Numbered from the stretch's first letter, positions 33,076 to 64,000 are shown. The stretch: DNA of 64,000 nucleotides from Alphaproteobacteria bacterium (GCA_045637985.1 JAZUAM010000020.1:66379-130378); one strand, 5' to 3'. Made by a program: numbers and translations. Notes: generated by a model from the letters alone, not told the origin.

Positions 33076-33097
33076 AAAACACAACACAATATACAAT

Positions 33098-33720: not shown

Positions 33721-33772
33721 TATTTCCTATATATAAAATACGGGAATTTATATTTCCTATATTATTCCCGTA
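33721..33772. promoter_or_regulatory. direct plus inverted repeat cluster upstream of the tarI-like gene
   Basis: tatttcctatat occurs at 33721-33732 and 33751-33762. tacgggaat (33739-33747) is the exact inverted repeat of attcccgta (33764-33772). Confidence 0.3.
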
Positions 33773-33802
33773 CAACGATTTTAGTTAGGGATACAAGATT
33801 CG

Positions 33803-34549: not shown

Positions 34550-34556
34550 GTGAACA

Positions 34557-36863: not shown

Positions 36864-36876
36864 GGTATATTTAGAA

Positions 36877-38151: not shown

Positions 38152-38164
38152 AGCAAAATTTTAG

Positions 38165-39654: not shown

Positions 39655-39718
39655 CAATAATCTGTTTTAAAGGACATTTTTATCATCCAGAACGAAGTGA
39701 AGGATTTTCTTCTATTAT

Positions 39719-40056: not shown

Positions 40057-40330
40057 TAAAAAATTTTTGTATATTTTTACAAAAACTTTCAATTTTTATA
40101 AAGTTTTTGTAAATATTAGAATAAAACTATTGAAAATTATGTTTTTTTAACAAGCGAAGAATGTTAAAAGAATAAATTTAACCAATTTAAGATATCTGTA
40201 TTTAGCTGTTGCAAAGGACATTTTTGTGCGTTAAAGTCAAAATTTGTTGATGTTTAGCGATTCCTACTTGGCGTAAAACCAAAAAGGTTATATCCTAAAC
40301 GCCTGTTCATTAACCTATGTCGAGGAAAAA

Positions 40331-41479: not shown

Positions 41480-41498
41480 TAGAAAGGAATATTTAATT

Positions 41499-43424
41499 AT
41501 GGTTGCGATTAAATTGCCTGATGGCAGTGTGATGGAAATGGAAAGCGGAGTCAATGGTTTTGACATCGCTTCAAAGATTAGCTCCGGTCTTGCAAAGGCC
41601 GCATTAGCTGTAAACGTAAACGGAAAAATGACCGATTTGACCACACCTATCACTACCGACGCAACCGTAACAATCATTACCGGCAAGGATAAAGAGGGCT
41701 TAGAGATCATCCGTCACTCATGTTCTCATATTATGGCAGAAGCTGTCAAAGAGCTTTGGCCTGATGTACAGGTTACTATCGGACCTGCTATCGAAAACGG
41801 TTTTTACTATGATTTTTCTCGCAAAGAGCCGTTTACCACGGAAGACTTTGAGAAGATTGAAGCCAAAATGCACGAGATTGTAAAGCGTGATGAAAAGGTT
41901 GAACGCAAAGTTCTACCTCGTAATGAAGCTATTGCTTATTTCAAAGGCATTGGCGAAAACTACAAAGCCGAGATTATTGAAGATTTGCCCGAAAGCGAAG
42001 TTATTTCGCTTTATTCGCAAGGCAACTTTACCGATCTTTGTCGCGGGCCTCATGTTCCCTCAACCGGCAAAGTAGGTGATGCTTTCAAATTGATGAAAGT
42101 TGCCGGTGCATATTGGCGTGGAGATTCAACCAAAGAAATGTTGCAACGTATTTATGCAACTGCATGGGCTGACAAAAAAGACCTCAAAGCTTATTTAGAA
42201 ATGTTGGAAGAAGCCGCCAAACGCGATCACCGCAAACTAGGTCGCGATATGGACTTGTTCCACTTTGAGCCGGAATATGCTCCCGGAGCTGTTTTCTGGC
42301 ACGACAAAGGCTACAAGATATATCGCAAGCTTATCGAATATATGCGTCATCGCCAAGAAAACAACGGCTATGTTGAGGTTGCTACTCCGCGCATTATGGA
42401 CAGATGTTTGTGGGAAACATCCGGACACTGGGAAAAATACGGCGCTCATAACTATTCCGGCAAAACCGAAGACGAAAAAGTTTTCTGTGTAAAACCGATG
42501 AACTGCCCTGGCGGACTTTTGGTCTATAAACAAGGTGTCAAATCATACCGTGACTTACCTTTGCGTATGGCTGAGTTTGGTATGGTAAACCGCTACGAAG
42601 CTTCCGGTTCTCTGATGGGCTTGATGCGTGTTCGTGAATTTACCCAAGACGATGCCCACATCTTTTGTACGCCGGAACAAATGGAAGAAGAATGTATTAC
42701 CACATTGAAATTGATTTTGGATATTTACAAAGACTTTGGTTTTAATGAAGTTAAGATTTATCTTTCAACCCGTCCGGAAAAACGTATCGGTTCAGACGAA
42801 ATTTGGGATTTGTGTGAAAAATCTTTAGCTAATGCATTAAGTTCGCACGGCTATGCGTTTGAAATAAATGAAGGCGAGGGTGCGTTCTATGGTCCGAAAC
42901 TTGAATTTATTTTGCGTGATGCAATTGGTCGCGAATGGCAATGTGGTACAATTCAGGTCGATATGAACTTGCCGCAACGTTTTGATATCAGCTATATCGG
43001 TGAAGACGGCGAAAAACATCAACCGGTAATGTTGCACCGTGCATTGTTTGGTTCTATTGAACGTTTCTTAGGTATTTTGATAGAAAACCACGCCGGACGT
43101 TTGCCGTTGTGGTTATCACCGGAACAAGTTGTTGTTTGTCCGATTGTCAACGAATTTGACGACTATGCCAAAGAAGTTGCATCAGCTTTGAAAAAAGCAG
43201 GACTGACAGCTAAAACCGATCTTCGTAATGAAAAGATAAACTACAAAGTTCGCGAACATTCTGTTGCCAAGATACCGGTAATTGCGGTTGTTGGTGCCAA
43301 AGAACGTGAAAACCGCACTGTAACGGTTCGTCGTATTGGTTCTGACAAACAAGAAGTAATGTCGCTTGATGCGTTTATTTCTTCTCTTGTTGAAGAAGCC
43401 AAAATGCCCCATATTGATGAATAG
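41499..43424 (+). CDS. thrS: threonine--tRNA ligase
   Basis: 641 aa with an N-terminal TGS domain, 'HRKLGRDMDLFHF', 'FTQDDAHIFC' and 'HRALFGSIERFLGILIE'. Confidence 0.95.
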   Translation: MVAIKLPDGSVMEMESGVNGFDIASKISSGLAKAALAVNVNGKMTDLTTPITTDATVTIITGKDKEGLEIIRHSCSHIMAEAVKELWPDVQVTIGPAIENGFYYDFSRKEPFTTEDFEKIEAKMHEIVKRDEKVERKVLPRNEAIAYFKGIGENYKAEIIEDLPESEVISLYSQGNFTDLCRGPHVPSTGKVGDAFKLMKVAGAYWRGDSTKEMLQRIYATAWADKKDLKAYLEMLEEAAKRDHRKLGRDMDLFHFEPEYAPGAVFWHDKGYKIYRKLIEYMRHRQENNGYVEVATPRIMDRCLWETSGHWEKYGAHNYSGKTEDEKVFCVKPMNCPGGLLVYKQGVKSYRDLPLRMAEFGMVNRYEASGSLMGLMRVREFTQDDAHIFCTPEQMEEECITTLKLILDIYKDFGFNEVKIYLSTRPEKRIGSDEIWDLCEKSLANALSSHGYAFEINEGEGAFYGPKLEFILRDAIGREWQCGTIQVDMNLPQRFDISYIGEDGEKHQPVMLHRALFGSIERFLGILIENHAGRLPLWLSPEQVVVCPIVNEFDDYAKEVASALKKAGLTAKTDLRNEKINYKVREHSVAKIPVIAVVGAKERENRTVTVRRIGSDKQEVMSLDAFISSLVEEAKMPHIDE

Positions 43425-43433
43425 GGTTGTTAG

Positions 43434-43700
43434 ATGTTTGAACTTATAGGTTTAATCGGATCTATTTGTTTTGCGATAAACTCTTGGCCGCAGGCGTGGT
43501 TATCATACCGCACCAAGACGGCCGAGGGTGTATCGTTGTCATTATTGGTATTAGGCACGATTGGCGGATTGTGTTCGTTGGTTTATGTTATAGCCACACA
43601 CCAATACGCCATAGTGCCGAATTTTTTGTGTGGTCTTATGGGAGTTTTGGTTGTTTTTTATTACAAGCTTCAAGACCTTCGCAAAGGAGCAGGGCAATGA
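43434..43700 (+). CDS. PQ-loop (SemiSWEET-like) 3-TM protein, copy 1
   Basis: 88 aa, three hydrophobic helices, 'NSWPQAWLSYRTKTAEGVS'. Confidence 0.6.
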   Translation: MFELIGLIGSICFAINSWPQAWLSYRTKTAEGVSLSLLVLGTIGGLCSLVYVIATHQYAIVPNFLCGLMGVLVVFYYKLQDLRKGAGQ

Positions 43701-43948
43701 TACAATTGATTGGCTATATTGGTTCATTGGCCTATGCATTATGCGGTTTGCCACAAGCGATAATGAGCATCAGAAACGGTCATTCCAAAGGAATCTCGCG
43801 CGGTTATGCGTTTTTGTCTTTGTTTGGTTCAATCTTCAGTATTATCTATGCATTTCCGCGTGCTGATTATGTTTTGTTGTTAAATTTTGGGGCAAACATC
43901 ATAGTCTGGAGCATAATTTTAAAATACAGCTATTTCGAACGCCGTTAG
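43697..43948 (+). CDS. PQ-loop (SemiSWEET-like) 3-TM protein, copy 2
   Basis: 83 aa starting at an internal ATG of the 160-aa track ORF, with an ATGA overlap onto copy 1. 'CGLPQAIMSIRNGHSKGIS'. Confidence 0.6.
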   Translation: MIQLIGYIGSLAYALCGLPQAIMSIRNGHSKGISRGYAFLSLFGSIFSIIYAFPRADYVLLLNFGANIIVWSIILKYSYFERR

Positions 43949-44062
43949 TCATTACAAATCAGCATTTATTTTTTTGTCATCACGAGGCAACCCCCCTCTG
44001 TCATTGCAAGTCAGCCTTTCCTTCCCCCGTCATTGCGAAGCGCTTGCGCTGAAGCAATCCAT
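43948..44062. repeat. second array of 'gtcat...' palindromic repeat units
   Basis: Units start at 43948, 43976, 44000 and 44029. The last is gtcattgcgaagcgcttgcgctgaagcaatcc, the same family as 39938 and 39987. Confidence 0.65.
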
Positions 44063-44200
44063 CCACTATCTCTCCATCTCCCCCTATATAATCCCCACAA
44101 AAAAACACCGCCCAAGCGATGTTTTTTTCAAACCTAATCCTCTGAAACCCTAGGGTTGTAGGAGGGGAAAACTGCATTCTTTATAATCACTAATATTATC

Positions 44201-45211
44201 TCAATCAAATATTACATTTTTTTTAATTATACTTGCAATTTTAATAATTTTTTTGTTTCCACAAGTTCTTAAGGACAACAATTTTATTCCAAACATTTTA
44301 AACTTAATTTCATTTTTAGAGTGTTCATAAAACAAAAAAGATTTTATAGCTAAAAGTAAAGAATAATTTCTCTTTTTTCTTAGAAAACAACAATAGGGAG
44401 ATTCTTTTGCGTATTTCCACCATATTTTTCCTAATTTAGCATTTATAGAGTTCCAAGGCTTTCTTCTATCAGCGTAATGAATTATTATTGGAGAATTCTT
44501 TGCAGAAACTATTTGTTTCATAGTAAAAAAAGAACTTAAATTACTATCAAATATAATTTTAGGCATAGCATTAAATTTTAAATCAATATTTTTTATTTTT
44601 CCAAAACATGCAACATTTATAACATCTTGGTCTTGAGAAGAAAAATTCTGTTTACTTAAATCTAAAAATTTTTTAACTAAATTATCATTTCTGATTTTTT
44701 GTAAATTCATCAATAAAACACCAGCATTAACATAATTTTTCATATGAGGAAGATTTAATCTTTGGCAATTATATGTTTCATTTTTTACATATCCTGCAGC
44801 CAGTACACCAGCAATATAGTTATCAGCCAAATCTATACTTAGTAACTGTTGTAAATCATCACACACAACCACATCCACATCCACATAAATACATTTGCTA
44901 TATTCAATGGGTAATATTTCAGTTGCCAGTAATCTATAATATGTTGGTGATGTAATGTGAGAAATTTGCATTTCTAAATCTGCGAATGCATCTTTCATAT
45001 CAATGAAATGTATATCACACTCATATGTATTTTTTAATTCCAATATTTTATTTTCATTATCAGAAGAAAAAGCACTGGGTACGAGAAGATAAAAGTCGTA
45101 AAATGTATTTTGTTTTTTATTTTCTAGCATTGAATACATTGTTATATACATAAAAGGCGCATAATTATCATCAGAAGCCAAAATTATAGGGCATATCACA
45201 GTATCTTTCAT
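44201..45211 (-). CDS. glycosyltransferase family 8 (LgtC/RfaJ-like)
   Basis: 'ILASDDNYAP', DxD 'YVDVDVVV' and 'NAGVLLMNL'. Confidence 0.8.
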   Translation of the reverse strand: MKDTVICPIILASDDNYAPFMYITMYSMLENKKQNTFYDFYLLVPSAFSSDNENKILELKNTYECDIHFIDMKDAFADLEMQISHITSPTYYRLLATEILPIEYSKCIYVDVDVVVCDDLQQLLSIDLADNYIAGVLAAGYVKNETYNCQRLNLPHMKNYVNAGVLLMNLQKIRNDNLVKKFLDLSKQNFSSQDQDVINVACFGKIKNIDLKFNAMPKIIFDSNLSSFFTMKQIVSAKNSPIIIHYADRRKPWNSINAKLGKIWWKYAKESPYCCFLRKKRNYSLLLAIKSFLFYEHSKNEIKFKMFGIKLLSLRTCGNKKIIKIASIIKKNVIFD

Positions 45212-45225
45212 AACTAATCCTTCTA

Positions 45226-46386
45226 TTATTCAAAACGATTAAATGATTCTTGTGAAAACAACTTTATTCCAAAAATTGTTTTTAATGAGAAGCCATTATT
45301 ATTAACATTAATTTTTAGAACTTTTATTCCAAAGAGCTTATAAATCTTTTTGTTCGGAAAAAATTCAATTTCTAAAAAAGGAATAAAACCAAACAATTTA
45401 TAAAGTGAATTTCTCATCTTAAAAGTATCAGCAAAATAGGTCCAATCATCATTTAAATAAAATTGTGCTAATCCCCTAAACTTTCCAAACTGTTCTTTAG
45501 TACAGTTTGAAACTTCATAATGTATTTTTCGTTTTATTGAATTATTTAACATCCATATTAGGTATTGATTGTTCGTATTTTCTAAAAATTTTTTAATATA
45601 TTTATATGCTAAAATGATATTATGAGCAACTTCTCCTCTTGATGAAGATATAGAATTTTTACGAAATACCCTATAATATACAAAATAATCAGGTAAAATG
45701 AAAATATTTCTAGCTACAGAGCGAGCACACCAATCAAAACCGATATCATTGCATGATGATAAATTTTGAAAATATAGAGAGTTTTGTTTTATGAAGTCTT
45801 TTCTATACAATTTATTCCAAGAGACAGAATCTCCTATATCATACAAAGATTGTGATAAATCATCTCTAGTTACCAAAAATTGCTTGACGGAGGCATCATA
45901 TTTTAAATTAAATTTATACAAATTTTTTGATGCATCATCATATTGATAAGCATTACACATAACTATATCAACATCATTTTCTTTAGCTTTGTTATACATT
46001 TCTTCATGCATATTAAGTTCAAAAAAATCATCGCTATCCAAAAAGCTAAGATATTCCCCTTTAGCAACTGATAAGCCGGCATTACGTGCAATGCCGGCAC
46101 GCAAATTTTGTTGTTTCAATATAGTTATTCTATTATCGTGTTTTGTATATTCTTTTAAGATTTCTAAAGATGAATCTGTAGAACCATCATCAATACAAAT
46201 AATCTCTATTTCTTTTAATGTTTGATTAATTACACTATCTAAGCATTCTCTGAGGTATTGTTCAACATTATATACAGGTATAATTACAGACACTTTAGGA
46301 ATATAATCAATTTTATTTTGAATAACTATTTCTGCTTGGGTAGTTGGTTCACCATCTGCATTTTGAACAGTAATTATTTTAGTCAC
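45226..46386 (-). CDS. glycosyltransferase family 2
   Basis: 'VSVIIPVYNVEQYLRECLDSVINQT', 'IDDGSTD' and 'LDSDD'. Confidence 0.85.
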   Translation of the reverse strand: MTKIITVQNADGEPTTQAEIVIQNKIDYIPKVSVIIPVYNVEQYLRECLDSVINQTLKEIEIICIDDGSTDSSLEILKEYTKHDNRITILKQQNLRAGIARNAGLSVAKGEYLSFLDSDDFFELNMHEEMYNKAKENDVDIVMCNAYQYDDASKNLYKFNLKYDASVKQFLVTRDDLSQSLYDIGDSVSWNKLYRKDFIKQNSLYFQNLSSCNDIGFDWCARSVARNIFILPDYFVYYRVFRKNSISSSRGEVAHNIILAYKYIKKFLENTNNQYLIWMLNNSIKRKIHYEVSNCTKEQFGKFRGLAQFYLNDDWTYFADTFKMRNSLYKLFGFIPFLEIEFFPNKKIYKLFGIKVLKINVNNNGFSLKTIFGIKLFSQESFNRFE

Positions 46387-46420
46387 TTTAAATCTCCGTA
46401 TATCTCGAAAGGTATCATGA

Positions 46421-47299
46421 TTAATTATTAAAATAAAAAAAATAGCTTTTTATTTTGCGAATAAAGAGAAGGTAGCAATTTCCAAAAAGATCTTTGTATT
46501 TTTTATATTCATTATTATTTTCCAAATCGTTCACACTAATGAGTTGCCTAATAAGAAAATCACTCATAGCTTTAATTTCTTTTTTGTTACGATTTTGAGT
46601 TTTTGCAAAATCCAAAGCCTTGCAACAAATCAAGTAAACATCTTCTTTTATTTTTTGCTTTTTTTCAGGTGATTGACTGATAGAATTAGGATTGCTTCGA
46701 TAAAAATTACCGACATAATCAATAGTTGAAAATTTTTTTATAAAATTAGCGGTCATCACCGAAAACAAAATATCTTCAATATAAATCTTCGGATAAAATC
46801 TCAGATTGTTTTTTTGAATCAATTCAGTTTTCCAAAGTTTGTTCCAAACATATCCTCTTTTAAGATTTTTGATTATATTTACAAATCCTTCGACGGTTTT
46901 TGTTTTATAAGAAAATGTTTTATCAATTTGAGTACTAAAAACAGAGTGACCGCATTGCACAACATCAGCATCACTTTTGTTAGCAGCACTTATCAAATTT
47001 TCATAAAAATCAAGTGCTATATAGTCATCGCTATCAACAAAACTAATCCAATCACCTGTTGCATTATCTAAACCTGTATTTCTTGCTACAGATAAACCAC
47101 CATTTTCTTGATGAATAACTTTTATTCGATTATCTTTTTCAGCGTATTCGTCTAATATCTTACCGCTGTTGTCCGGACTTCCGTCATCCACACAAATAAT
47201 TTCCAAATTTTTATATGTTTGGTTGATTATACTGTCCAAACATTGTGGCAAATACTGCTCTACATTATAAACCGGAACAATAACCGAAATTTTACTCAT
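46421..47299 (-). CDS. glycosyltransferase family 2
   Basis: 'ISVIVPVYNVEQYLPQCLDSIINQT', 'VDDGSPD' and 'VDSDDY'. Confidence 0.85.
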   Translation of the reverse strand: MSKISVIVPVYNVEQYLPQCLDSIINQTYKNLEIICVDDGSPDNSGKILDEYAEKDNRIKVIHQENGGLSVARNTGLDNATGDWISFVDSDDYIALDFYENLISAANKSDADVVQCGHSVFSTQIDKTFSYKTKTVEGFVNIIKNLKRGYVWNKLWKTELIQKNNLRFYPKIYIEDILFSVMTANFIKKFSTIDYVGNFYRSNPNSISQSPEKKQKIKEDVYLICCKALDFAKTQNRNKKEIKAMSDFLIRQLISVNDLENNNEYKKYKDLFGNCYLLFIRKIKSYFFYFNN

Positions 47300-47317
47300 T
47301 AGTTCACGTCCTTTACC

Positions 47318-48382
47318 TTACTCCACAATCGTCGGCCAAGGGAAGTTGCCGGCATCAAATTCGTTAAACATCAGGTCGGTAATATATTTTGCAATCAACT
47401 TTTCGTTGAAAAGTTCGTGATATTTCACCCATCCTTTTTTTGCCATTTCCATACGCTCTTCCGGATTGTTGCGGTAATAATCAATCTTTTTATAAAGCTC
47501 GTCTTCGTCCTTATAAAAAGCAATCTCATCTTTGCCAAACAAGTCGCCAAATCCCGTTCTCTCATCCATCAACGCCAATGCTCCGTTACCCATAAGGTGC
47601 GCCATTCTGTCTGATGAATACAAATAATCATGATTACTGCGGTTGATGTTTAACCCCATTGCCGTATTGGAAAATACTCGTTGATATTCCGCACCGACCA
47701 AACTTTCGCCCATAACTCTTGAGAACAAAACTTTGTTCATATCAATATTTTTGCTAATGCGCTCAATAATATCTGATGTTTTCATCAAACGATTATCAAA
47801 TTCTCTGATGCTCTTCGGACTTGATGGAAAAACCAAATCCCATTCCGGATTTTTTATCTCAAAAGCTCTTCCGGTCTCAATCGACTTGTCCGTCGGATTT
47901 GGCATAAATCCGACTTTGTGCTTTTTGCTGTCAAATTGTTGCAACAATTTTCTATCAGCGGTTGTAATAATGGTATAATCCACCAAATCGATTTTTGCTT
48001 TAATATGTTCAATATTGCTCGGAACAATCTCGGGATTAATACAATCAACATTCCATTGCAAAATCTTTGTGTTCGGCAAATCTTTGCGAATGCGCGCCAA
48101 AGTCTCTACCGTAATAGTGTCCGCATGTCCAAATATAATACCATCCGGATTAGTATCGATACAATAACGATAAAACAGCTCATTAAAAGGCTTTTTGCCA
48201 AATTGTTTCAACTTACCGAATACCGAAAACGTACGCAAAATATCCCTGTCCGAAAAATCCAAAACATTATGTCCGTTACGAATAAGTCCATGCGAAATTT
48301 TATATGGCGCAATGTTCATATGTGCGCCGGTGCGCTTTATCAGATTAAAATTTGTGCAATGAATCAGTCTCTTCGGTGTCAT
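47318..48382 (-). CDS. CgeB-like glycosyltransferase family protein (Glyco_trans_1_2-type C-terminus)
   Basis: C-terminal 'EIAFYKDEDELYKKIDYYRNNPEERMEMAKKGWVKYHELF' is typical of the CgeB/DUF3880 family as I recall it. Confidence 0.5.
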   Translation of the reverse strand: MTPKRLIHCTNFNLIKRTGAHMNIAPYKISHGLIRNGHNVLDFSDRDILRTFSVFGKLKQFGKKPFNELFYRYCIDTNPDGIIFGHADTITVETLARIRKDLPNTKILQWNVDCINPEIVPSNIEHIKAKIDLVDYTIITTADRKLLQQFDSKKHKVGFMPNPTDKSIETGRAFEIKNPEWDLVFPSSPKSIREFDNRLMKTSDIIERISKNIDMNKVLFSRVMGESLVGAEYQRVFSNTAMGLNINRSNHDYLYSSDRMAHLMGNGALALMDERTGFGDLFGKDEIAFYKDEDELYKKIDYYRNNPEERMEMAKKGWVKYHELFNEKLIAKYITDLMFNEFDAGNFPWPTIVE

Positions 48383-52990: not shown

Positions 52991-53028
52991 GATTATAAGT
53001 TATGATATTTTTGGTAGGAGTTGAGGTT

Positions 53029-55848
53029 ATGATACTTACATCTAGGGAACTGAGGGCGGCGTATAATAATGGCAATTGCGATTTTGAAATATTATCCTCT
53101 CAAATAGAGGAAGCATTAGGGCAAGAAGGTCTTTCAAATAATCAACGTGATGAAATCGAAAAACTCAAACAAGAAATTGAACAAAGCCGTGTAACCGCAA
53201 AACAAGAAGAAAACTCTAGTAAACAACAAGAAACGGAAGAAGTTACTACTACTCCCAACAGCCCTCATGATGAATTCAAAAAAGCCAAAAACAATGAAGA
53301 ACGCCGAAAAATAGCTATTCAAGAATTTCAAAACGGAGAATTTACACATCAAGAACACAAAGATTTTTTCATTGAACAATATGTCAAAGGTGAAATCGGT
53401 ATCGATAAACAAGATGAAGAAATGCGCTCAAAACTTGAAGATGTTCTGGGCGGAAAAGAAGGGATTCAACAACGCAAAGAGACTTTACTAAAATCAATTG
53501 TTTCAAACTCTCTCAATACATACACTACCACAGCCAGCGGCATGGCTCCTGTTATTGGTAAAGATGACTTTGGTTTATCTGTAGCCAAAGAAGATGTAAG
53601 AAAAAAAGGCAACAAAACAGATTTTGATGAGCTTATGGCAGAAGTAGATCGTTTAGCTCTGTTAAAAAGAGAGCTAGGTACTGATCGAAAAGAAGAGGTT
53701 ACTAAAAGAGAAGAAGAACTTCGCAAAAATTTAGAAGGATTTAAGTCTGGTGAAAAGAAATTAAAATGGCATCAGTTCCGTAGAAAACAAAAATTAAATA
53801 AAGTTGATGAAAAGCTGGATCCCATAGGATATTGGAATGAACAGCGACAACATAATGGCGGCAGTCTTTATGTCCAACTTATGCATAGTCGGGCTATTTC
53901 GCGTGTTAATAATACTGAAAAATATAAAGAAAAACTAAATACTGTAATCGAAGCCAAAGCCATTGATGCATCAACAAAGTGGTTTAGTAAAAGAGTTGGC
54001 GAAAAAATCAAAGCAAAGACGACTATTCTGTTTAGTCGTTCTCCTGAAAAACTGTTGGAAAAGTTTCAACAAAATGCAACAGTATCCGATATGGCAGAAT
54101 ATCAAGCCGATTTGAAAAAGAAAATGACTGCTAAAAATACCGAATACAGTGCAAGTATCCATACTAAAAGTCAAGAAAATGAATACAAAAAATATAATGA
54201 ATATTATGAAGGTTTTTCTAAAAATTTAAATGAAGCAGCAGATGCTAAAGAAAAAGAAACCAAACGACTTGAAAAAGGTATGAAAGGTACCGAACATTCA
54301 TCCGACAAACCGGAAATGGTTGCCAAAAACATAAAATCCAAGCTTGAACAAATCAAGCAGTCTTTTGAAGAATATCAAAAAGACGATGTTGTCTTAAAAG
54401 CTTGGAACAATTTTCATGATGCCAACAGTGATGAAACCGGAAAATTTACGGATACGCAAATTTTGCAAATGATTTGTGAACAAAGCGGATTTGAAAATAT
54501 TGATGGTTTGTTAAAAAGTATGGGGATATCTGAAAGCAAAGTTCAAGAACTTAAAGAACAAATATTAGGTAAATCGACAGAGCAAAAACCAGTCGAGCAA
54601 GAAGTCTCACGCGAACAACCGGCAGATGAAAATACACAAGAAACAACACCGGCAAAAGTAAAAACTGCGGATAATGTTCCGGAGGGAAGTGAACCGCTTA
54701 GTAATACAGCTTTTTATCAAAATAGCAAAAATGAATATGTGTATAATAAACAAGCTGTTTCCAATGGCGAAAATCCGCTTGCCAGTAAAGAAGATCAGAT
54801 AAAAACTTTGCTTACTCAACTTAAAGCTCAAGGTGTTAAAGATATCGAAATTACCGGATTTGATGACAATATGGCAAAGGCCTTTAAGGATGTTTTGGAA
54901 AGTGATGAGTTTAAGGATGTTTTTAATGTTACCAATAAAGAACAATTTGATGAACAAGTAAAAAATGCAGAAAAAGTAGATGAAAGTCATGATAAAAATG
55001 ACGATAAAAAGGTTGGTGGTGAACCCCCAGAAGAAACATTAGAAGAGGTTGTGTTAGGACAAGGTCGCGAAGAACAAGATAAGGTGAAAGTTGCATCAGA
55101 AACAGATAACGAATCACAAGATAGTGAAAATGGTGAAAAAGAAAATAGGAATGACGATAAGTTTCAATCTTTTGAAGAAGTCCAATTATCTGTAGCTTCT
55201 AAAGGTGACAAAGCTGCAGAATTGCTGAAAGTTATGAATGATATCAATACCGGACATTCTAAATATACGGCAAAAGAATTATCCGAATTAGGTTTTGATA
55301 AAAAAGAGACCGCCTATTTGGCAGATTTATCAACAGCTCAAGAACTTGAAGGAGGAAAATCGTCTGTAGAGGTAACTAATGAAGCAAGCAAAAGAGGAAC
55401 TCCAGAACGAGGTAAACAATGGACAGATGAAGATTTTGAAGTATTACAACAAATTAAATCCGAAGAAGGAATTAAAACTTCCTCTGATAAAAGTTTTGAA
55501 AAAGCTCGTGCAGTTGCAGACAGTTTCGCAACGGATGAAGTAGATACAGATAATGCTGAATATAAAAGTCTTTCATCAGAGGAGCAGCAAATTGTAAACA
55601 ATCTTTGTAAATTAAGAAAAGATGTTTCGGAGAAATGTAAGGATGCAAATAATAAAAAAATAGGCACATATAGTGCCGATGATATAAACAAAGCCAGAAA
55701 TCAGGCAAGTAAGTTGGTAGCTAGAGAATTTATTAAAGATAAATTTGAAGGTAAAAAACATGAAGGAATTGATGATAAAAGAACAAACAATCTTTCAAAA
55801 GAAGCTATTAGCAAAATTACACAGCATAATGGAAGTTCTAGAGGATAA
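53029..55848 (+). CDS. large highly charged (E/K/D/Q-rich) hypothetical protein
   Basis: Stop-free for ~2.8 kb. The ATG at 53029 is preceded by AGGAG (53016-53020); the track start at 53002 has no SD. No signal peptide, TM segment or known domain recognised. Confidence 0.6.
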   Translation: MILTSRELRAAYNNGNCDFEILSSQIEEALGQEGLSNNQRDEIEKLKQEIEQSRVTAKQEENSSKQQETEEVTTTPNSPHDEFKKAKNNEERRKIAIQEFQNGEFTHQEHKDFFIEQYVKGEIGIDKQDEEMRSKLEDVLGGKEGIQQRKETLLKSIVSNSLNTYTTTASGMAPVIGKDDFGLSVAKEDVRKKGNKTDFDELMAEVDRLALLKRELGTDRKEEVTKREEELRKNLEGFKSGEKKLKWHQFRRKQKLNKVDEKLDPIGYWNEQRQHNGGSLYVQLMHSRAISRVNNTEKYKEKLNTVIEAKAIDASTKWFSKRVGEKIKAKTTILFSRSPEKLLEKFQQNATVSDMAEYQADLKKKMTAKNTEYSASIHTKSQENEYKKYNEYYEGFSKNLNEAADAKEKETKRLEKGMKGTEHSSDKPEMVAKNIKSKLEQIKQSFEEYQKDDVVLKAWNNFHDANSDETGKFTDTQILQMICEQSGFENIDGLLKSMGISESKVQELKEQILGKSTEQKPVEQEVSREQPADENTQETTPAKVKTADNVPEGSEPLSNTAFYQNSKNEYVYNKQAVSNGENPLASKEDQIKTLLTQLKAQGVKDIEITGFDDNMAKAFKDVLESDEFKDVFNVTNKEQFDEQVKNAEKVDESHDKNDDKKVGGEPPEETLEEVVLGQGREEQDKVKVASETDNESQDSENGEKENRNDDKFQSFEEVQLSVASKGDKAAELLKVMNDINTGHSKYTAKELSELGFDKKETAYLADLSTAQELEGGKSSVEVTNEASKRGTPERGKQWTDEDFEVLQQIKSEEGIKTSSDKSFEKARAVADSFATDEVDTDNAEYKSLSSEEQQIVNNLCKLRKDVSEKCKDANNKKIGTYSADDINKARNQASKLVAREFIKDKFEGKKHEGIDDKRTNNLSKEAISKITQHNGSSRG

Positions 55849-56237: not shown

Positions 56238-57155
56238 ATGCAAAATTTTTCACTCCATACCCATACAATAGGTTTTGATGGACGTAATACCGAAGAAGAA
56301 ATGCTGTCAAAGGCGACAGAACTAGGGTGGAGCCATATCGGATTTTCCAATCATTTTATTGTCCATCCTGTAATCAAGGATGCGCCAATGTATCAATATG
56401 CATGTCAAAGGGGGTATGATAACATTTATTCATCGTCTTTTGATGAAGCAATTGCCAAATTTGAAACCCACTACAAAAAAATAGATGATTTACGAAAAAT
56501 AAGTAATATAAACATCTTAAAAGGTATGGAGGTTGATTTTTTTGCGACCGGAGAATGGCTTGAAGGCTTTAATAAAGCTCTAAAACATTTGCAACCGGAC
56601 TATCTTATAGGCGCCGCCCATTTTGTTTTACATAACAATACTCTTTACAATTCTCATGATATAAAAGCAGCATCACCGGTTGAACAAAATATGCTTATTT
56701 ATAAATATTGGCAAAATGAGCGAGCTGTCGCAGAATCCGGCTTGTTTACATTTATGGCTCATTTGGATTTAATGAAAAAAGTCGGCCTCGGACAAGAAAA
56801 CAAATGGCAAGATGAAGAAAAAAAGACTATTCTTGCCATAAAAAAATCCGGAACAATTATAGAATTAAATACTAGCTACTGCAAGTTTGGTAATGAACCA
56901 TACCCAAGCGAGCGAATTATGAAAATGATTGCTCAAGAAAACATTCCGGTTATAATCAGCGATGATGCTCACGCAACAGAACAGTTAGGCAAAAAATTTG
57001 TCGAAACACAAGAATTAGCAACTATGTGCGGGATTACCGAGTTTTGTAGTATGGATAAACAATCATCATCTTCAAAAATACATATTACAAAAGGCAACAA
57101 TACAAATTATTATCTGGACTTTCCGAAAAGTTTTAAGGCTATTTCTTGTAAATGA
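56238..57155 (+). CDS. PHP-domain phosphoesterase (HisJ-family histidinol-phosphatase-like)
   Basis: 'FSLHTHTIGFDGRN', 'MAHLDL' and 'IISDDAHA'. The 3' end overlaps the convergent zeta-like gene by 46 nt. Confidence 0.7.
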   Translation: MQNFSLHTHTIGFDGRNTEEEMLSKATELGWSHIGFSNHFIVHPVIKDAPMYQYACQRGYDNIYSSSFDEAIAKFETHYKKIDDLRKISNINILKGMEVDFFATGEWLEGFNKALKHLQPDYLIGAAHFVLHNNTLYNSHDIKAASPVEQNMLIYKYWQNERAVAESGLFTFMAHLDLMKKVGLGQENKWQDEEKKTILAIKKSGTIIELNTSYCKFGNEPYPSERIMKMIAQENIPVIISDDAHATEQLGKKFVETQELATMCGITEFCSMDKQSSSSKIHITKGNNTNYYLDFPKSFKAISCK

Positions 57156-57805
57156 GATTTTTGCGCCTTTTTGATATCATCAGTATTAACAAACATAAAA
57201 TCTTTTCGTGTTTTTCGTTCTTTAATGGCATTATTTACCCATCTCGGATATTTATAAAAAACTCGAAAATAATATTTATCCATTAAAAAGATTAATTTAT
57301 AAGGATCACGTCCGGAGTTATCAAACACCGCCGCCAAATCACTACGAGCCAACATATCCGGAAAATTTTTAATAACTCTCGGATATCTGCGTTCTATATC
57401 CTCGGGAGGTACTGAATGTCCGCCTTCATTAACTCTTTTTTGTACACGAGTATGTGATAACTCGACTTTGGATAATCCGATAAAAACAGTTCCGACTTTA
57501 TATCCTTTTTTATGAGCTTCTTCCATTATTCTTAAATGTGTTCGCCCTGATGATGTTGTTTCATAAACAAAATTTTTCTTTTGTTTAAAATTATTCGCTA
57601 TCTCAGCCCTGACTTTACGTCCGGCCATGACCATATAATCATTTGGATCTCCATCTCCGGCGAATTCTTTGGCATAATTATCCAGATTTATAAAGGGTGC
57701 ATTTTTAAACAAAGGATCGCTACGTAAAATTGTTTCATAAAACGTAGATTTTCCTGCACCGTTCGGACCGGCAATAATCAACAACCAGTTTTCTTTTTTA
57801 CTCAT
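57110..57805 (-). CDS. zeta-toxin family P-loop kinase (COG4185-like)
   Basis: 231 aa with Walker A 'IAGPNGAGKSTF' near the N-terminus. It is translationally coupled (ATGA) to a small upstream ORF. Confidence 0.6.
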   Translation of the reverse strand: MSKKENWLLIIAGPNGAGKSTFYETILRSDPLFKNAPFINLDNYAKEFAGDGDPNDYMVMAGRKVRAEIANNFKQKKNFVYETTSSGRTHLRIMEEAHKKGYKVGTVFIGLSKVELSHTRVQKRVNEGGHSVPPEDIERRYPRVIKNFPDMLARSDLAAVFDNSGRDPYKLIFLMDKYYFRVFYKYPRWVNNAIKERKTRKDFMFVNTDDIKKAQKSHLQEIALKLFGKSR

Positions 57806-58149: not shown

Positions 58150-58225
58150 TGGTGAGCTCGGGCGGGTTCGAACCGCCGACCCTTTGATTAAAAGTCAAAT
58201 GCTCTACCGACTGAGCTACGAGCCC
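58150..58225 (-). tRNA. tRNA-Lys (UUU)
   Basis: The reverse complement folds as a cloverleaf. Acceptor gggctcg/cgagctc, D arm gctc-agtcggta-gagc, anticodon arm tttga-ctTTTaa-tcaaa, T arm ggcgg-ttcgaac-ccgcc, with an encoded CCA. Confidence 0.92.
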
Positions 58226-58387: not shown

Positions 58388-58711
58388 ATGGTAAATACTA
58401 ATAATCCAGCAGAAAACAACGAAGGTACATACGAAATTTTACAAAATGCTGAGGGTGAAATCCTTATTATGATAAAACAACGCCGCGGTGGTCCGGAAAA
58501 TCCTCGTTTTGTTTATGATGGCGGTGAAACTGCCTTATTATACAGGAGTCGCGAGAGTTCGGTATTTTTAGGCGGAATCAACCAAGACGCCCGCAGTCCG
58601 CTCAAAGCCGTTGATGAAGTTCTTGTTGCGGAAATAGATGGGGATGAAGTTGCCCGCGAATATGTTGTTCCTGTTCGTTTGGTTAGAGATCTTAAGGCTG
58701 TATTAAGTTAG
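58388..58711 (+). CDS. hypothetical soluble protein
   Basis: 107-aa ORF with GC-richer codon usage than the flanks and a strong terminator after it. No domain recognised. Confidence 0.5.
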   Translation: MVNTNNPAENNEGTYEILQNAEGEILIMIKQRRGGPENPRFVYDGGETALLYRSRESSVFLGGINQDARSPLKAVDEVLVAEIDGDEVAREYVVPVRLVRDLKAVLS

Positions 58712-58738
58712 GCAACTTGTTATACAATATATTAAAAT

Positions 58739-58767
58739 AAGGGCTTTAAAAGCCCTTGTTTTTTTTA
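58739..58767 (+). terminator. rho-independent terminator
   Basis: aagggctt (58739-58746) pairs with aagccctt (58750-58757), then gtttttttt. Confidence 0.7.
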
Positions 58768-58806
58768 TATATTAACCTCAAACAAAAAAAGAAATAAGGT
58801 TTATTT

Positions 58807-60459
58807 ATGATTTTACAGTTATTTATAACACTATTGCTTATATCTGTTACATCAATGCTGATAACTCAAAGGCGGCGCAAAAGAATATGGTCTGTATTAG
58901 TATTGGCGGTATTATGTATTGTTGCATACTTTTTTATGCAAAGTATCAGCACAAACACCCAAGGAGGTTTTATTTATCAGTGGCTTCCCTATAGCAATTT
59001 AAAAGCCGATATTATGATTTCTTCTTCTGTTCAAATAAGGCAAGTACTTATACCTATGATATTTATTACATCGTTTTTGCTTTATTTTAATATCATTTCA
59101 TCCGCAGAACAGCACGCACTCAATTTTAATACTCTGCTTTTATTAAATCTGGTAGGTTTTATTTTGCTGATATCCGGCAATGATTTTTTTCAAATAATGT
59201 TTGCCAGTTGTATGCTTTCTGTTATCGGTTTTTATATGCCGGATTTTATTTTGCCCAAGAAAAAGTTATTTATTTTTAATTTTTTATCTGAAATGGCAAT
59301 TTTTACGGCCTTAGCCATAATTTACGGCAAAATAGGTTCAATAAGTCTCACTACTCTGCCGCAATTTGTAAAAAACGGGCATCACAAAGATCTTGTTGCC
59401 GGATTGTTTATGTTTGCGATAGGATGTAAATGCGGATTGTTTTTATTAAATGGTCAATTTCACGATTTAAAATATGCATTATTTAATCGTATGATAAGTA
59501 TAATGAGTATATCAACACCATTATCCGGAATAATTCTTTTCATAAAATTCAAACCTGTTTTGCTTGCAAACACATTATTTGAAGATGTTTTTCCTTTTTG
59601 GCTTACTATATCCGTAATAACATCATTATTTAGTGCTTTGATAAACAACAATATCAGGTCAAAGGCAATTAGTTTTGCTCTTTGTTTATATTCGGTTTCA
59701 TTAATGATGGTTTATAACGATTCGTCGGCACTATACAATATCATTACCATATTGATTCCGACTTTAATAATAACAATGACAATAATTTTAATTGTTTCTG
59801 TTTTATCATCAGATGAAAAAGATATATCTTATCTTGATAGTTTTTTGGGTAAGCGTAATTTTGTTTTAACACTGATTTTATTCATTGCTGCTATTTCTCT
59901 TTTAACATCAAAAGCTACGTCACTATATATTGATATTTCAACAAATATTTATCTTTTTGTTTTGGCAATTATTATCAAAATGCTTTATTTTAAGACATTT
60001 CGCAAACAAAAAACATTGTTGATGCCAATACAAAGCATTAGTTTTTTATATTGGTTTCCTCTTTTATTACTTTCGCTTTTCTTGATATGGCAAAGCTTTA
60101 TCTGGCCAAATCCGAGATTTATATCGATGATGATAATTTGTATGGCAGCCGTTTTGTTAACTCCTGCAAGATTATTTATAAGGTTCGGACAAGCAAAGAT
60201 ATGGCAATTTGATATTTTATCCTATATATACGAAATATTTTTAATCAAGCCACTGCGTTATATCGGAAGATTTTTATGGCTTGCATTTGATATTATGGTA
60301 ATTGAACGCAGCATAATATCAACCATATCACACACAACAAAAATAATTATTTCCGGAGTTCACAAATTGCAAGAAACCGGACGATGGAGCTGTTTAATCA
60401 GTATTGCCATAGGGATATCCATAATGCTTATTTATTGGGGAGTATATATAAATGAGTAA
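58807..60459 (+). CDS. highly divergent NuoL/ND5-like (Proton_antipo_M family) membrane protein
   Basis: 550 aa, polytopic. 'LLISGNDFFQIMFASCMLSVIGFYM' aligns by eye with the NuoL TM5 region. First of three tandem antiporter-like genes. Confidence 0.5.
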   Translation: MILQLFITLLLISVTSMLITQRRRKRIWSVLVLAVLCIVAYFFMQSISTNTQGGFIYQWLPYSNLKADIMISSSVQIRQVLIPMIFITSFLLYFNIISSAEQHALNFNTLLLLNLVGFILLISGNDFFQIMFASCMLSVIGFYMPDFILPKKKLFIFNFLSEMAIFTALAIIYGKIGSISLTTLPQFVKNGHHKDLVAGLFMFAIGCKCGLFLLNGQFHDLKYALFNRMISIMSISTPLSGIILFIKFKPVLLANTLFEDVFPFWLTISVITSLFSALINNNIRSKAISFALCLYSVSLMMVYNDSSALYNIITILIPTLIITMTIILIVSVLSSDEKDISYLDSFLGKRNFVLTLILFIAAISLLTSKATSLYIDISTNIYLFVLAIIIKMLYFKTFRKQKTLLMPIQSISFLYWFPLLLLSLFLIWQSFIWPNPRFISMMIICMAAVLLTPARLFIRFGQAKIWQFDILSYIYEIFLIKPLRYIGRFLWLAFDIMVIERSIISTISHTTKIIISGVHKLQETGRWSCLISIAIGISIMLIYWGVYINE

Positions 60460-61882
60460 TCCTTTTGCTATCCTTTCTCTTATCATAAGCATCCCTTTTT
60501 TAGGTATGTTATTTGTATTAACAGCCAAGGATGACGTAGAAACTCAGGGACGCAACAGTTCAAATGTTGCCATTTTTACCATCGTATCTAATTTAGTATT
60601 AATATGGCGTGTTTTTATGTTGATTGATGAACAAAAACTTAAACTTCAATTATTTGAAAAATTCAATTGGGTTTCAGCGCCGGATATAAATTTGGTTTTT
60701 GCGGTTGACAATTTATCACTAATGATGATTTTAGCCATCCACTTAGTTATTTTAATGGGTATTATTTTTGTCCGAAACACATCTGATTGCAAAAAATCTC
60801 TTATGGTTTTTACGTTGTTGTTTTTAAGTATGTCAACCGGACTGTTTGTTGCCGCCGATATTTTTTCATTTTTCATATTTTTTGAAGCAATGTTATTACC
60901 GTTATTTATGTTAATAGGTATGTTTGGCGGTATTAAAAAACCTGAAAAAATAAATGGCTTTTTCTTATATAACCTGATAGGCGCTTTAATATTTTTCTGT
61001 GGAATTTTGTTGGTGTATAAATATTACGGAAGTCTTACTTTAGATAAAACATTCAAAATATTATGGAAGAAAAATTGCGGTGGGTTTATTTGGGCTGCTT
61101 TGGCACTTGGGTTTATTTCTCGTATACCTGTTTGGCCTTTTCACTACTGGATATCATCCATAACCACCAAGATTCATAATCCTCTTGTTTTTATATCCTC
61201 GGCAGTTCTTCCTCTCAGCGGAATTTATGGTTTAATAAGGTTTTGGCCACGCCAAATTCCACTTGAAATTTCTCAATATTTTGTCTGGCTCAATGTTGTT
61301 GGAACGGTAACAATGCTATTTATAAGTCTTATCGGTTTTATAAATAAAGAAACTCAATATAAGATATTTTCTTTTGTAACCGTATATTACATAATGTATT
61401 TATTGGGTATTTTCAGTCAGGATAAACTGATTACCAACAACATAGGATATGCATTATTTGGCTTTTTAATAGTTTTTGCCACGCTTGAAGTTTTATCTGC
61501 GTACATTTATCGCCAAGAACAATCAAACAACAGCATATCCTCCGGTTTTTTATGCCGAGCCAAACGATTGTCGACATCATACTCATTTATAACTTTTGCT
61601 GCTGCGGGTTTTCCTGTGTCTGCAATGTTTACCAACAATTTTCTGATTTTATCTAAATTACTGTCATACAATATACATATGGGAGCAGTCCTCATTATGT
61701 CATGTATCATTGCATCTGCGACACTTATTTCGGAAATGTTTCGTCTCAAAACCGAAAATAAAGAATGTCGATTGAGCAAATCAGAGGATATCAGTTTTGG
61801 TCGCTTTATCTTCATAATATTTATTATGTTTATGCTTTTAATGTCTTTTATCAGACCGCTTTGGTTTGTAATAAATGAATAG
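60452..61882 (+). CDS. divergent NuoM/ND4-like membrane protein
   Basis: 476 aa with 'FSFFIFFEAMLLPLFMLIGMFGG', 'FFLYNLIGALIFF', 'IPVWPFHYW' and 'GIYGLIRF', which parallel NuoM TM5-TM8 landmarks. Confidence 0.65.
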   Translation: MSNPFAILSLIISIPFLGMLFVLTAKDDVETQGRNSSNVAIFTIVSNLVLIWRVFMLIDEQKLKLQLFEKFNWVSAPDINLVFAVDNLSLMMILAIHLVILMGIIFVRNTSDCKKSLMVFTLLFLSMSTGLFVAADIFSFFIFFEAMLLPLFMLIGMFGGIKKPEKINGFFLYNLIGALIFFCGILLVYKYYGSLTLDKTFKILWKKNCGGFIWAALALGFISRIPVWPFHYWISSITTKIHNPLVFISSAVLPLSGIYGLIRFWPRQIPLEISQYFVWLNVVGTVTMLFISLIGFINKETQYKIFSFVTVYYIMYLLGIFSQDKLITNNIGYALFGFLIVFATLEVLSAYIYRQEQSNNSISSGFLCRAKRLSTSYSFITFAAAGFPVSAMFTNNFLILSKLLSYNIHMGAVLIMSCIIASATLISEMFRLKTENKECRLSKSEDISFGRFIFIIFIMFMLLMSFIRPLWFVINE

Positions 61883-61893
61883 GGAGAATTAAA

Positions 61894-63318
61894 TTGTTAC
61901 AAAATTGGTTTATTCTTATGCCGGAACTTTTTCTTCTTGGGTTTTATATTATAGCATTACCTGTTGAAATTTATCATACGGAAAAGACATCAAAAACATT
62001 TTTTTCAATAGCTCAATTTTGTATATTAGCATCAATGAGTTCGACCATCCTTTTTTATAACAAAAGCGCATTTCCGCCACTTTGGCAAAATACTCCCTTT
62101 ACAACATTATTTAAGACTTTTTCATATCTTTTGTCGTGGGCATGGTTTTATCTTTCATCCAAATGGTTTTTAAATAAAAATCGTCCGTCTTTCAAATTTT
62201 ATTCAATATGCTTTGCAATACTTTTCTTGCTCAACATTTTGGCATCAAGTTCATCTTTGTTGACGTTATCTTGCGTTGTTCCGTTGATTTGCATTTTTTA
62301 TCGACTGCTTATTTTACGTCATTGGGATGTTGATAAAGTCAGACATATTGCAAACACATACAGTATTTGCAGCGTGTTGTTTTGTTTGCTTCTATGGTGT
62401 GGAACAGCAATAATATATTATTGCGCAGGGGCTTTTGAATATTCCGAAATCAACAAATTTTTATCATCTTCATCCGATATACCATCTTATATATTGCTTG
62501 GGATATATTCAATTTTGATATGTTTTATGTTTATTATGGCTTTGGTTCCTTTTCACAGTTGGTTTATAGGTTTTATATCTAACGGCGTTTTACCGGTCTG
62601 TGGTTTTATCACGTTAGTTCCTCCGCTTATTTTTCTTTGTTCACTAATTCGACTGGTTACGGAATGTTTTTATCCTTTTATATCTGAAATAATCTCAATA
62701 ATCGGTCTGTTTTCTTTGCTTTCATTGATTATAGGAGCTGTTTCGGCAAATCGCGAATGCAATATCAGACGTCTTTTCGGTTATATAAGTATTTATTGTA
62801 CCGGTTTTACATTAATAGGAATCCTCAATTTTTCAGATAAATCAATAATTGCATCTTTTGCATACACAATCATATCGATTTTATCTTTTGCCGGAATTTA
62901 TACGGTGTTTTTGGGGTTAAAATCACGCGGTGATTATCTCAGTTCTACAACGGATATAAGCGGTTTTTACACAGTACGTCCGTATATGTCCGCTGCTTTT
63001 TTAATATTTATGTTTTCTCTTATCGGTTTGGCGCCGACGTTGGGATTTTTCGGATATTTATCAATTTTCAACAATTTAATAGGAATTAGTGCGTGGTGGC
63101 GTTTAGGTCTGATGATGCTAAGTATGCTTTTTGTCGCTAATGCCTGTTTACAGATTGTCCGTATAATATATTTTGACAAAGCCACAATCAAGTTTGATAG
63201 AACAGACAAAGCAATATACATATGTTTATTCATAAATGTTATCTTTATTTTAGTTTCTTTAATAAATCCTGCTTGGTTGCTTTCTGATGCTCTTATAATT
63301 TTAGGAGGAATTTCATGA
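61894..63318 (+). CDS. divergent NuoN/ND2-like membrane protein
   Basis: 474 aa with TTG start and GGGAGA upstream. 'ALVPFHSWF' and 'FSLIGLAPTLGFFGY' parallel NuoN landmarks. Its stop overlaps the birA ATG. Confidence 0.55.
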   Translation: MLQNWFILMPELFLLGFYIIALPVEIYHTEKTSKTFFSIAQFCILASMSSTILFYNKSAFPPLWQNTPFTTLFKTFSYLLSWAWFYLSSKWFLNKNRPSFKFYSICFAILFLLNILASSSSLLTLSCVVPLICIFYRLLILRHWDVDKVRHIANTYSICSVLFCLLLWCGTAIIYYCAGAFEYSEINKFLSSSSDIPSYILLGIYSILICFMFIMALVPFHSWFIGFISNGVLPVCGFITLVPPLIFLCSLIRLVTECFYPFISEIISIIGLFSLLSLIIGAVSANRECNIRRLFGYISIYCTGFTLIGILNFSDKSIIASFAYTIISILSFAGIYTVFLGLKSRGDYLSSTTDISGFYTVRPYMSAAFLIFMFSLIGLAPTLGFFGYLSIFNNLIGISAWWRLGLMMLSMLFVANACLQIVRIIYFDKATIKFDRTDKAIYICLFINVIFILVSLINPAWLLSDALIILGGIS

Positions 63319-64000
63319 GCAATCTGTTAAACGACAAATGGCAACATATTCAATACGACGAAGTAACATCAACTAATGATATTGCAAAAAAACACACAAA
63401 TCATCAAACACCTTTTATCATTACATCCAAAAAACAATCAGCCGGTCGGGGACGACACGGACGTAATTGGCAAAGTCTGGAAGGAAACCTATTTCTAAGC
63501 CAATTAATACCGAATGATATTCCCGTAACACATCTTGTTTTTGTGTCATCATTGAGCATTGCGGAAACACTTCGTGAAATAACAAATGAAGACATAATTA
63601 TCAAATGGCCCAATGATGTATTAGTCAATCGAAAAAAAATAAGCGGTATATTAATAGAGACGTATGAAGACAAAATAATTATAGGCATTGGTGTCAATCT
63701 GGTTTCGCATCCTGATTTAAACGATACTATTTATCCTGCAACAGATTTACAATCATTAGGTTACAGTGTACAACCTGATGATTTTTTGCAAATTTACATC
63801 CGATATTTTGATAAAAATCTGGCGCTTTGCAGTCAAAACTTTTCAATTATTCGGCAAAAATGGCTTGAGTTTGCCAAATATTTAAACTCCCCCATAAAAG
63901 TGCGTTATTCTGATTATACTAAAGAAGGCCTGTTTAAGGGTATTGACGAACACGGCTTTTTATTGTTAGAACAAGAAGACACAATAACCAAAATCGCTGC
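63315..64000 (+). CDS. birA: biotin--[acetyl-CoA-carboxylase] ligase (3' end outside window)
   Basis: AGGAGG at 63304-63309. 'SAGRGRHGRNWQS' and 'KWPNDVLV'. Open to the window end, so it is absent from the track. Confidence 0.85.
   Translation, partial: MSNLLNDKWQHIQYDEVTSTNDIAKKHTNHQTPFIITSKKQSAGRGRHGRNWQSLEGNLFLSQLIPNDIPVTHLVFVSSLSIAETLREITNEDIIIKWPNDVLVNRKKISGILIETYEDKIIIGIGVNLVSHPDLNDTIYPATDLQSLGYSVQPDDFLQIYIRYFDKNLALCSQNFSIIRQKWLEFAKYLNSPIKVRYSDYTKEGLFKGIDEHGFLLLEQEDTITKIA

Follow-up and report, generated by a model that had tools for sequence, protein, structure and literature searches.

A NuoL-NuoM-NuoN-like module without its redox arm in uncultured gut Alphaproteobacteria and its probable retention as a redox-uncoupled complex

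The antiporter-like subunits of complex I are usually discussed only as redox-driven proton pumps. Mrp (Mnh/Pha) is a redox-independent complex of the same fold, and in DabB-DabA and NdhD3/NdhF3-CupA (NDH-1MS), complex I-type subunits take a non-respiratory role. DAB and NDH-1MS are thought to need ion translocation. Equally, membrane-arm genes that outlast the catalytic and connecting subunits have been observed in gut or fermentative lineages, with an orphan nuoJKLMN in all 95 Gilliamella genomes (PMC11325843) and NuoLMN without connecting subunits in Chloroflexi RBG-1351 (PMC3971608) and in CHL_03 (PMC9326234); the authors suggest possible remnants of genome reduction, and these orphan genes are otherwise unexplained (PMC11325843, PMC3971608, PMC9326234). 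In a stretch of 64,000 nucleotides from an Alphaproteobacteria bacterium (GCA_045637985.1, JAZUAM010000020.1:66379-130378), called the window in the following, positions 58,807 to 63,318 encode three polytopic proteins, here L, M and N, which form an orphan NuoL-NuoM-NuoN-like triad. A redox-uncoupled 'pseudo-antiporter' L-M-N complex, held by selection for a structural or non-canonical role, is the reading that is preferred for this triad with a probability of roughly 0.6.

The best comparison is provided by the distal module of complex I of Paracoccus denitrificans (NuoL/M/N = Nqo12/13/14, PDB 8qby), with which the triad shares one-to-one best matches, the L-M-N order followed by birA, the antiporter fold and the NuoL lateral helix together with transmembrane helix (TM) 16. 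Unlike the Paracoccus complex, the triad stands without nuoA-K, scores below the NuoM and NuoN cut-offs, includes an L without family match, has a replaced proton relay and belongs to a strict fermenter reported to be without quinones or oxidases. The Gilliamella and Chloroflexi remnants are alike in the outlasting of the membrane arm, with the difference to Gilliamella nuoJKLMN that J and K are also gone here. Beyond those reports, in which the relay state was not part of the present comparison, the triad offers retention in about 70 species, measured purifying selection and clade-wide relay replacement. The depth and uniformity of this retention, the measured constraint, the systematic relay substitution and the natural deletion variants are what is new here.

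With hidden Markov models (HMMs), M and N pass the gathering cut-off of PF00361 (82.7 and 84.6 bits, respectively, at a cut-off of 21.5), and their top NCBIfam models are TIGR01972 (NuoM, 165 bits) and TIGR01770 (NuoN, 173.7 bits), both below the curated cut-offs of 263.8 and 332.6 bits. L as a single sequence has no match in Pfam or NCBIfam (TIGR01974, NuoL, included), and PF00361 is present on the L-like protein of one relative (P0038). Against solved structures, Paracoccus NuoM is best for M (4.7e-28) and Paracoccus NuoN for N (3.3e-31), and a clade profile built from 40 L-like sequences retrieves Paracoccus NuoL (1.4e-16), with MrpA (7d3u_A) ranking third; the NuoL match covers two stretches, and the C-terminal lateral helix plus last TM makes up one of them. 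Profile positions 461-553 align with Paracoccus NuoL 609-701, including a conserved Asp (D495). The AlphaFold2 (AF2) model of L (predicted local distance difference test, pLDDT, 76) consists of approximately 16 TM helices with a 53-residue lateral helix at about 470-522 and a C-terminal anchor TM at 526-549, and a Foldseek search with this model places NuoL/ND5 chains best and Paracoccus NuoL on top (TMq 0.71). Broken-helix motifs of the antiporter-like fold are retained (PxHxW in TM7). L, M and N thus correspond one to one to alphaproteobacterial NuoL, NuoM and NuoN, from which they descend with very strong divergence, and are subunits neither of Mrp nor of a hydrogenase. The derivation from the 3' end of a nuo operon, which had been proposed from gene order, is borne out by these best matches, by Nuo models that score well above MrpD models on M and N (165-174 vs 68-77 bits), by birA following N in 69 of 69 related loci, mostly at a distance of -3 to +27 nucleotides (nt), and by the RNase J gene directly after birA in the closest relative (L003). 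Adjacency of nuoN and birA is typical of alphaproteobacterial nuo operons, for which a literature search gave no confirmation.

With Mrp, the triad has the secondary matches to MrpD models in common; unlike Mrp, it is without MrpB, C, E, F and G, none of which was found flanking it, and the conserved Lys and Glu residues common to Mrp and complex I are missing. DabB-DabA and NDH-1MS are comparable in the sense that a small soluble protein is encoded next door to the triad as well (S, 107 amino acids, aa), with the difference that neither DabA (DUF2309) nor a CupA-type soluble subunit adjoins the triad, and that S, its sole conserved soluble neighbour, has no detectable relation to them and a doubtful linkage to the triad. 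Membership of the triad in Mrp has consequently been rejected on the model scores and the flanking genes, and membership in Hyf/Ech and in DAB on scores and gene context.

The orphan status of the triad is well supported for the clade and not proven for the window's own genome. A phmmer search with Mycolicibacterium NuoE-K and other Nuo open reading frames (ORFs) against all ORFs of the window and related loci (1.25 Mb) did not detect any of NuoE-K, with NuoA-D not in the query set, and returned L/M/N cross-matches and weak ferredoxin-domain noise only. In the neighbourhoods of about 70 genomes, covered with 10 kb flanks, ten loci are without adjacent S, and none of these has a nuo gene directly upstream of L, where SecA, a histidine kinase, an amino-acid permease, an EptA-like protein or a protein without Pfam match is encoded instead. 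Equally, the scanned window ORFs of at least 120 aa contain no respiratory genes and are of housekeeping or envelope type. In a published survey, Azospirillum sp. CAG:239 and Acetobacter sp. 46_36 are listed among 'organisms with near complete genome' without oxidases, with empty menaquinone/ubiquinone columns for both; for CAG:239, the complex I column contains just NuoE-like, NuoF-like and NuoN-like, the bc1 and succinate dehydrogenase columns are empty, and [FeFe]-hydrogenase, HydEFG and PFO are present (PMC6431628 Table S2). The NuoE/F-like genes belong to a HymABC-type [FeFe]-hydrogenase, and PFO is also reported in these organisms (PMC4967309). Azospirillum sp. 51_20, described as closely related to CAG:239 (PMC4967309), bears the triad (locus L073). 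The absence of nuoA-K claimed in the initial annotation is therefore upheld by the NuoE-K-negative search, the unrelated upstream genes and the survey table, that is, locally and not genome-wide. In the literature on this gut clade and complex I, microbiome surveys only were found, and the sole mention of the triad that was met for this clade is 'NuoN-like' in a supplementary table (PMC6431628).

A genome scan for M-like proteins yielded 73 loci in metagenome-assembled genomes of uncultured gut Alphaproteobacteria from hosts including human, sheep, deer and yak, several of them labelled 'uncultured Azospirillum sp.' or 'Acetobacter sp.', over which the identity of M ranges from 96% down to 34%. 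Throughout, the L-M-N order is constant and lengths are tightly constrained except for L in two species; apart from the L of these two, which is shortened in frame, no ORF is truncated in about 70 species. The ratio of nonsynonymous to synonymous substitution rates (dN/dS) between the window and L003 amounts to 0.140 for L, 0.043 for M and 0.083 for N, compared to 0.108 and 0.075 for a PHP-domain gene and a zeta-toxin-like gene in the neighbourhood. Purifying selection on L, M and N, initially argued from reading frames staying open in an AT-rich background, is confirmed by these values; 474 stop-free codons would arise by chance at the base composition of the window with a probability of approximately 5e-17. 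Median identity to the window is 61% for S, 44% for M, 40% for BirA, 34% for N and 25% for L, with M about as conserved as BirA, and positions conserved to at least 93% number 65 in M, 18 in N and 15 in L. In M, such near-invariant positions concentrate in TM5-TM8 and TM12; in L, the near-invariant charged residues are E101, K208, R228, K247, D495 and E500, and four of the 15 conserved positions (P482, L490, D495 and E500) are located in the lateral helix.

Natural variants add to this picture. In two species (L004:8698-10008 and L005:5799-7109), the L-like protein comprises just 436 aa following an in-frame loss of about 110 residues (window equivalents ~347-452, TM12-15), with the lateral helix and TM16 retained; an N-terminal truncation was considered for these proteins and rejected in favour of the internal in-frame deletion. 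This deletion together with the conserved lateral-helix residues indicates that selection in L preserves the strut and not the second half-channel. In a related lineage seen in two independent samples (L083:197-2990 and L084:207-2574, GC content 32%), the order is S, hairpin, birA and RNase J gene with no L, M or N in between, with identities to clade members of 45% for BirA and 56% for RNase J; this lineage represents a natural loss of the triad. As a triad-free S-birA-rnj arrangement exists, retention of the triad elsewhere is not forced by operon structure, and as a clean deletion with birA still expressed is viable, its retention in about 70 species is to be ascribed to selection acting on L, M and N as such.

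The state of the proton relay was read from HMM alignments to the Paracoccus and E. coli chains and tabulated over 70-72 clade members, with the established E. coli numbering. In M, the TM5 Glu is present in the window (E145) and in 48 of 72 members, with Val, Ala, Thr, Leu or Ile in the others; the TM7 Lys is Arg in 72/72 (R224), the TM8 Lys is replaced by Leu, Val, Ile or Phe in all (L255), the TM10 His by Tyr in nearly all (Y312) and the TM12 Glu by Asn in 72/72 (N396). These replacements are common to the whole clade and therefore date to the clade ancestor. Exchanges of Lys to Arg, His to Tyr, Glu to Asn and Lys to Leu keep size and hydrogen bonding and remove ready proton exchangers, a pattern that resembles a pseudoenzyme. 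In N, the relay positions vary across the clade and mostly carry hydrophobic residues, and all relay residues are lost in the window, where P130 replaces the TM5 Glu (Glu in 7/70), T155 the TM6 Lys (variable, Arg in 35/70), I214 the TM7 Lys (Lys in 5/70), P244 the TM8 Lys (lost) and Y388 the TM12 Lys (Lys in 23/70); such patchy survival would fit, as expected, sites freed from constraint. In L, the TM5 position (C135) is never Glu, with an Asp one turn on (position 138) in 44/72 and Ser at this place in the window, the TM7 Lys is kept in 71/72 (K208) and the TM12 Lys is not conserved. E145 of M and K208 of L are the only canonical relay residues that survive in the window, and none of the three proteins has a proton-loading site left in TM8 or TM12. 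The erosion of channel motifs seen by eye in the initial annotation, including a TM5 Glu kept in M and absent in L and N, is reproduced in the alignments and extends over the clade, and the retained K208, absent from that reading, has to be added; of the two lysines of M considered lost, the TM8 Lys is indeed replaced, whereas the TM7 position is a conservative Lys-to-Arg exchange and not a plain loss.

The preferred explanation assumes that the distal membrane module (NuoL-NuoM-NuoN) of an ancestral alphaproteobacterial complex I would have been inherited vertically as a remnant, with nuoA-K lost as the lineage became a strictly fermentative gut anaerobe. Of the two readings given initially, the repurposed relic is the one that fits, as opposed to a complete complex I in very fast evolution. 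L-M-N-birA would form one translationally coupled expression unit that follows a hairpin, and the full antiporter-like architecture is kept, including the lateral and anchor helices of L which clamp M and N in complex I. Because these two helices of L are retained, an L-M-N membrane complex with the three proteins next to each other most likely still forms. Since an electron-input module is missing, quinone is probably absent from the host and the relay has been replaced by Arg, Tyr and Asn or by hydrophobic residues, neither redox-driven nor canonical proton pumping would be expected. M would be the functional core with L and N mainly as structural supports, and the retained role would most likely be structural or docking in the inner membrane, with a non-canonical transport centred on M as the second possibility. 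That the module leads a second, redox-independent life as a clade-wide pseudo-antiporter with invariant Arg, Tyr and Asn, which functions as scaffold, docking site or new M-centred transporter without proton relay and matters enough to the cell for M to match BirA in conservation, is proposed tentatively, at slightly less than even odds.

Several observations weigh against this explanation. One related lineage has lost the triad, which shows that it is dispensable in at least some settings. Some ion chemistry could still run through the pair of TM5 Glu and TM7 Arg in M (Glu in 48/72) and, in L, through the pair formed by Asp (D138 in 44/72) and Lys (K208 in 71/72), and the invariant Arg, Tyr and Asn at the old relay sites could mark a new binding site and not a dead one. 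Furthermore, the assembly of L, M and N is deduced, and the absence of nuoA-K is based on two relatives in the published survey and on the nearby genes, not on the whole genome of this organism.

The main rival, considered unlikely and still to be taken seriously, views L-M-N as a redox-independent secondary ion transporter or channel, with Mrp-like cation/proton exchange or a new substrate, that uses a rewired network of E145, R224, H231, N243, Y312 and N395/N396 in M. In fact, the constraint on M equals that on an essential enzyme, conservation is highest in TM5-TM8 and TM12, the old ion path, and the replacements by Arg, Tyr and Asn are invariant and not random. Single NuoL and NuoN proteins can replace MrpA and MrpD in Bacillus, which equally counts for a transporter. 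Functional differentiation of NuoL and NuoN is mentioned in PMC4938563. An ion path through the complex is, however, difficult to reconcile with the disappearance of the TM8 and TM12 proton-loading sites from all three subunits, with the replacement of the M TM5 Glu in 24/72 members, with two species that do without the entire second half-channel of L, and with the lack of nearby MrpB/C/E/F/G genes and MrpD models well below the Nuo models.

A different proposal, which does not exclude the pseudo-antiporter complex and is regarded as improbable, is that S is a cytoplasmic partner of L-M-N in a four-component system comparable to DabA-DabB or CupA with NdhD3/F3. As the rest of the synteny breaks down, S continues to precede L directly in 56 related loci, with a spacing of 9-106 nt that shrinks to just 9-36 nt in some loci, and with a dN/dS of 0.010 it is the slowest-evolving gene of the neighbourhood. 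Against a partnership, a hairpin with T-run separates S and L here and in many relatives (34 of 56 S-L intergenic regions according to our own folding heuristic), in L020 and L021 S is located elsewhere or on the other strand, and S stays beside birA where L-M-N is absent. The divergence of S is also decoupled from that of M, with 45-55% vs 87-90% identity at equal M distance. Homologues, finally, occur in unrelated contexts: a search with the S profile against 1.84 billion representatives returned 595 relatives, with the S domain fused C-terminally to TIR domains and contained within STAND-TPR, Sel1 and ankyrin proteins, and elsewhere homologues adjoin glyA and groES. S as an obligate partner of L-M-N has been downgraded on the basis of the S-birA-rnj arrangement without triad and of the homologues beside glyA and groES.

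No family was found for S in Pfam, NCBIfam or PADLOC, its AF2 model (pLDDT 83) has no fold match in the PDB below E = 0.4 with Foldseek, and homologues from a search of 5.8 billion proteins carry no informative name among the matches listed. A known fold or a defence role for S was rejected with neither a curated family nor a PDB match at hand. The fusion pattern of S is reminiscent of adaptor domains in conflict systems.

Less probable again is that the triad is a decaying relic without function of its own, kept open mainly via transcription and translation into the essential birA (and rnj) and by misfolding toxicity. Translational coupling of birA to N in every locus, the faster evolution of L and N compared to BirA, the large in-frame deletion in L of two species, the loss of the triad in one lineage and the patchy erosion of N relay residues would agree with decay. 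On the other hand, dN/dS values of 0.04-0.14 are not near 1, M, with 65 near-invariant positions, surpasses BirA in conservation, charged or polar residues of L are invariant (E101, K208, R228, K247, D495 and E500), and about 70 species keep all three genes, although a clean deletion can be tolerated, as seen from the S-birA arrangement. A complete, fast-evolving complex I or hydrogenase-type relative with the other subunits encoded elsewhere, for which NuoE/F-like genes in relatives, a window genome seen only in part and the split nuo operons that occur in other bacteria can be invoked, is the least credible proposal in view of near-complete relatives surveyed as being without NuoA-D, NuoH-K, quinone synthesis and terminal oxidases, of NuoE/F-like genes assigned to the HymABC-type hydrogenase, of coupling relay residues lost clade-wide and of no NuoE-K in 1.25 Mb.

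Considered as a pseudo-antiporter complex, the triad constitutes a natural, long-lived L-M-N module with no redox arm, probably no quinone and a systematically replaced relay, available in about 70 species variants. It could reveal what the fold does when unable to pump, such as assembly, membrane organisation or the handling of another substrate, and, as a set of natural mutants, it bears on the debate over what the TM5/TM7 ion pairs and the lateral helix do. Equally, the triad is effectively unannotated, with near-identical L- and M-like proteins from the same 90% clusters labelled 'hypothetical protein' in GenBank (MBE6453869.1 / MBE6453870.1), and in metabolic reconstructions, the N-like gene may be taken to indicate complex I. 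The clade is also relevant to models of an anaerobic alphaproteobacterial ancestry of mitochondria (PMC4967309).

The arrangement of the locus is summarised in Table 1. L and M share 8 nt, M and N are separated by 11 nt, and the N stop is fused with the birA start codon as ATGA (63315-63318), with the ribosome-binding site AGGAGGA in front of birA and GGGAGA in front of the TTG start of N; ORF sizes, overlap, gap and the ATGA junction are exactly as first noted. The upstream surroundings were equally described correctly, with tRNA-Lys, a soluble ORF of 107 aa and a terminator-like hairpin, and with neither nuoK nor nuoJ. The hairpin between S and L is read as a putative intrinsic terminator or attenuator. 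The assignment of birA is based on the L003 orthologue (92% identical), which matches PF03099 and PF02237.

Table 1. Features of the L-M-N locus in window coordinates.
Feature	Position	Strand	Product length and start codon	Basis or remark
tRNA-Lys(UUU)	58150..58225	-		ARAGORN; upstream boundary
S, soluble protein	58388..58711	+	107 aa	ORF; conserved triad neighbour
GC-stem hairpin, 13 bp, bidirectional, with T-run	58734..58762	+		Consensus scan
Promoter-like hexamers upstream of L	58745..58773	+		Consensus scan, 9/12 matches, not above shuffled expectation
L-like, diverged NuoL orthologue	58807..60459	+	550 aa, ATG	Clade profile, AF2 model, Foldseek
M-like, diverged NuoM orthologue, most constrained of triad	60452..61882	+	476 aa, ATG	PF00361, TIGR01972, Paracoccus NuoM
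N-like, diverged NuoN orthologue, relay residues lost	61894..63318	+	474 aa, TTG	PF00361, TIGR01770, Paracoccus NuoN
birA, biotin-protein ligase	63315..64000, runs past window end	+		Sequence; domains of L003 orthologue

Further upstream, the PHP-domain gene (+) and the gene for a zeta-toxin/AAA_33-like P-loop kinase (-) are convergent with 3' ends that overlap by 46 nt (56238-57805). An ORF of 948 aa at 53002-55848 (+) has no Pfam or PADLOC match and an AT skew of up to 0.28; with 62% identity to its L003 counterpart compared to 94-99% for its neighbours, it encodes a fast-evolving large protein. Surface-polysaccharide genes extend over 32110-48382, among them LicD, two teichoic-acid-type CDP-glycerol glycerophosphotransferases, a pyruvyl transferase and several glycosyltransferases, with thrS and a PQ-loop gene interspersed; the GC content drops to 27-28% at 38-40 kb and 44-46 kb, and the region probably specifies variable envelope glycans. 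A full lipid A cluster is present in the same genome. Within the lipid A gene cluster, an ORF of 221 aa at 25326-25991 (+) matches the serum amyloid A family PF00277 (7e-14), a family chiefly known from vertebrates and odd in a gut bacterium.

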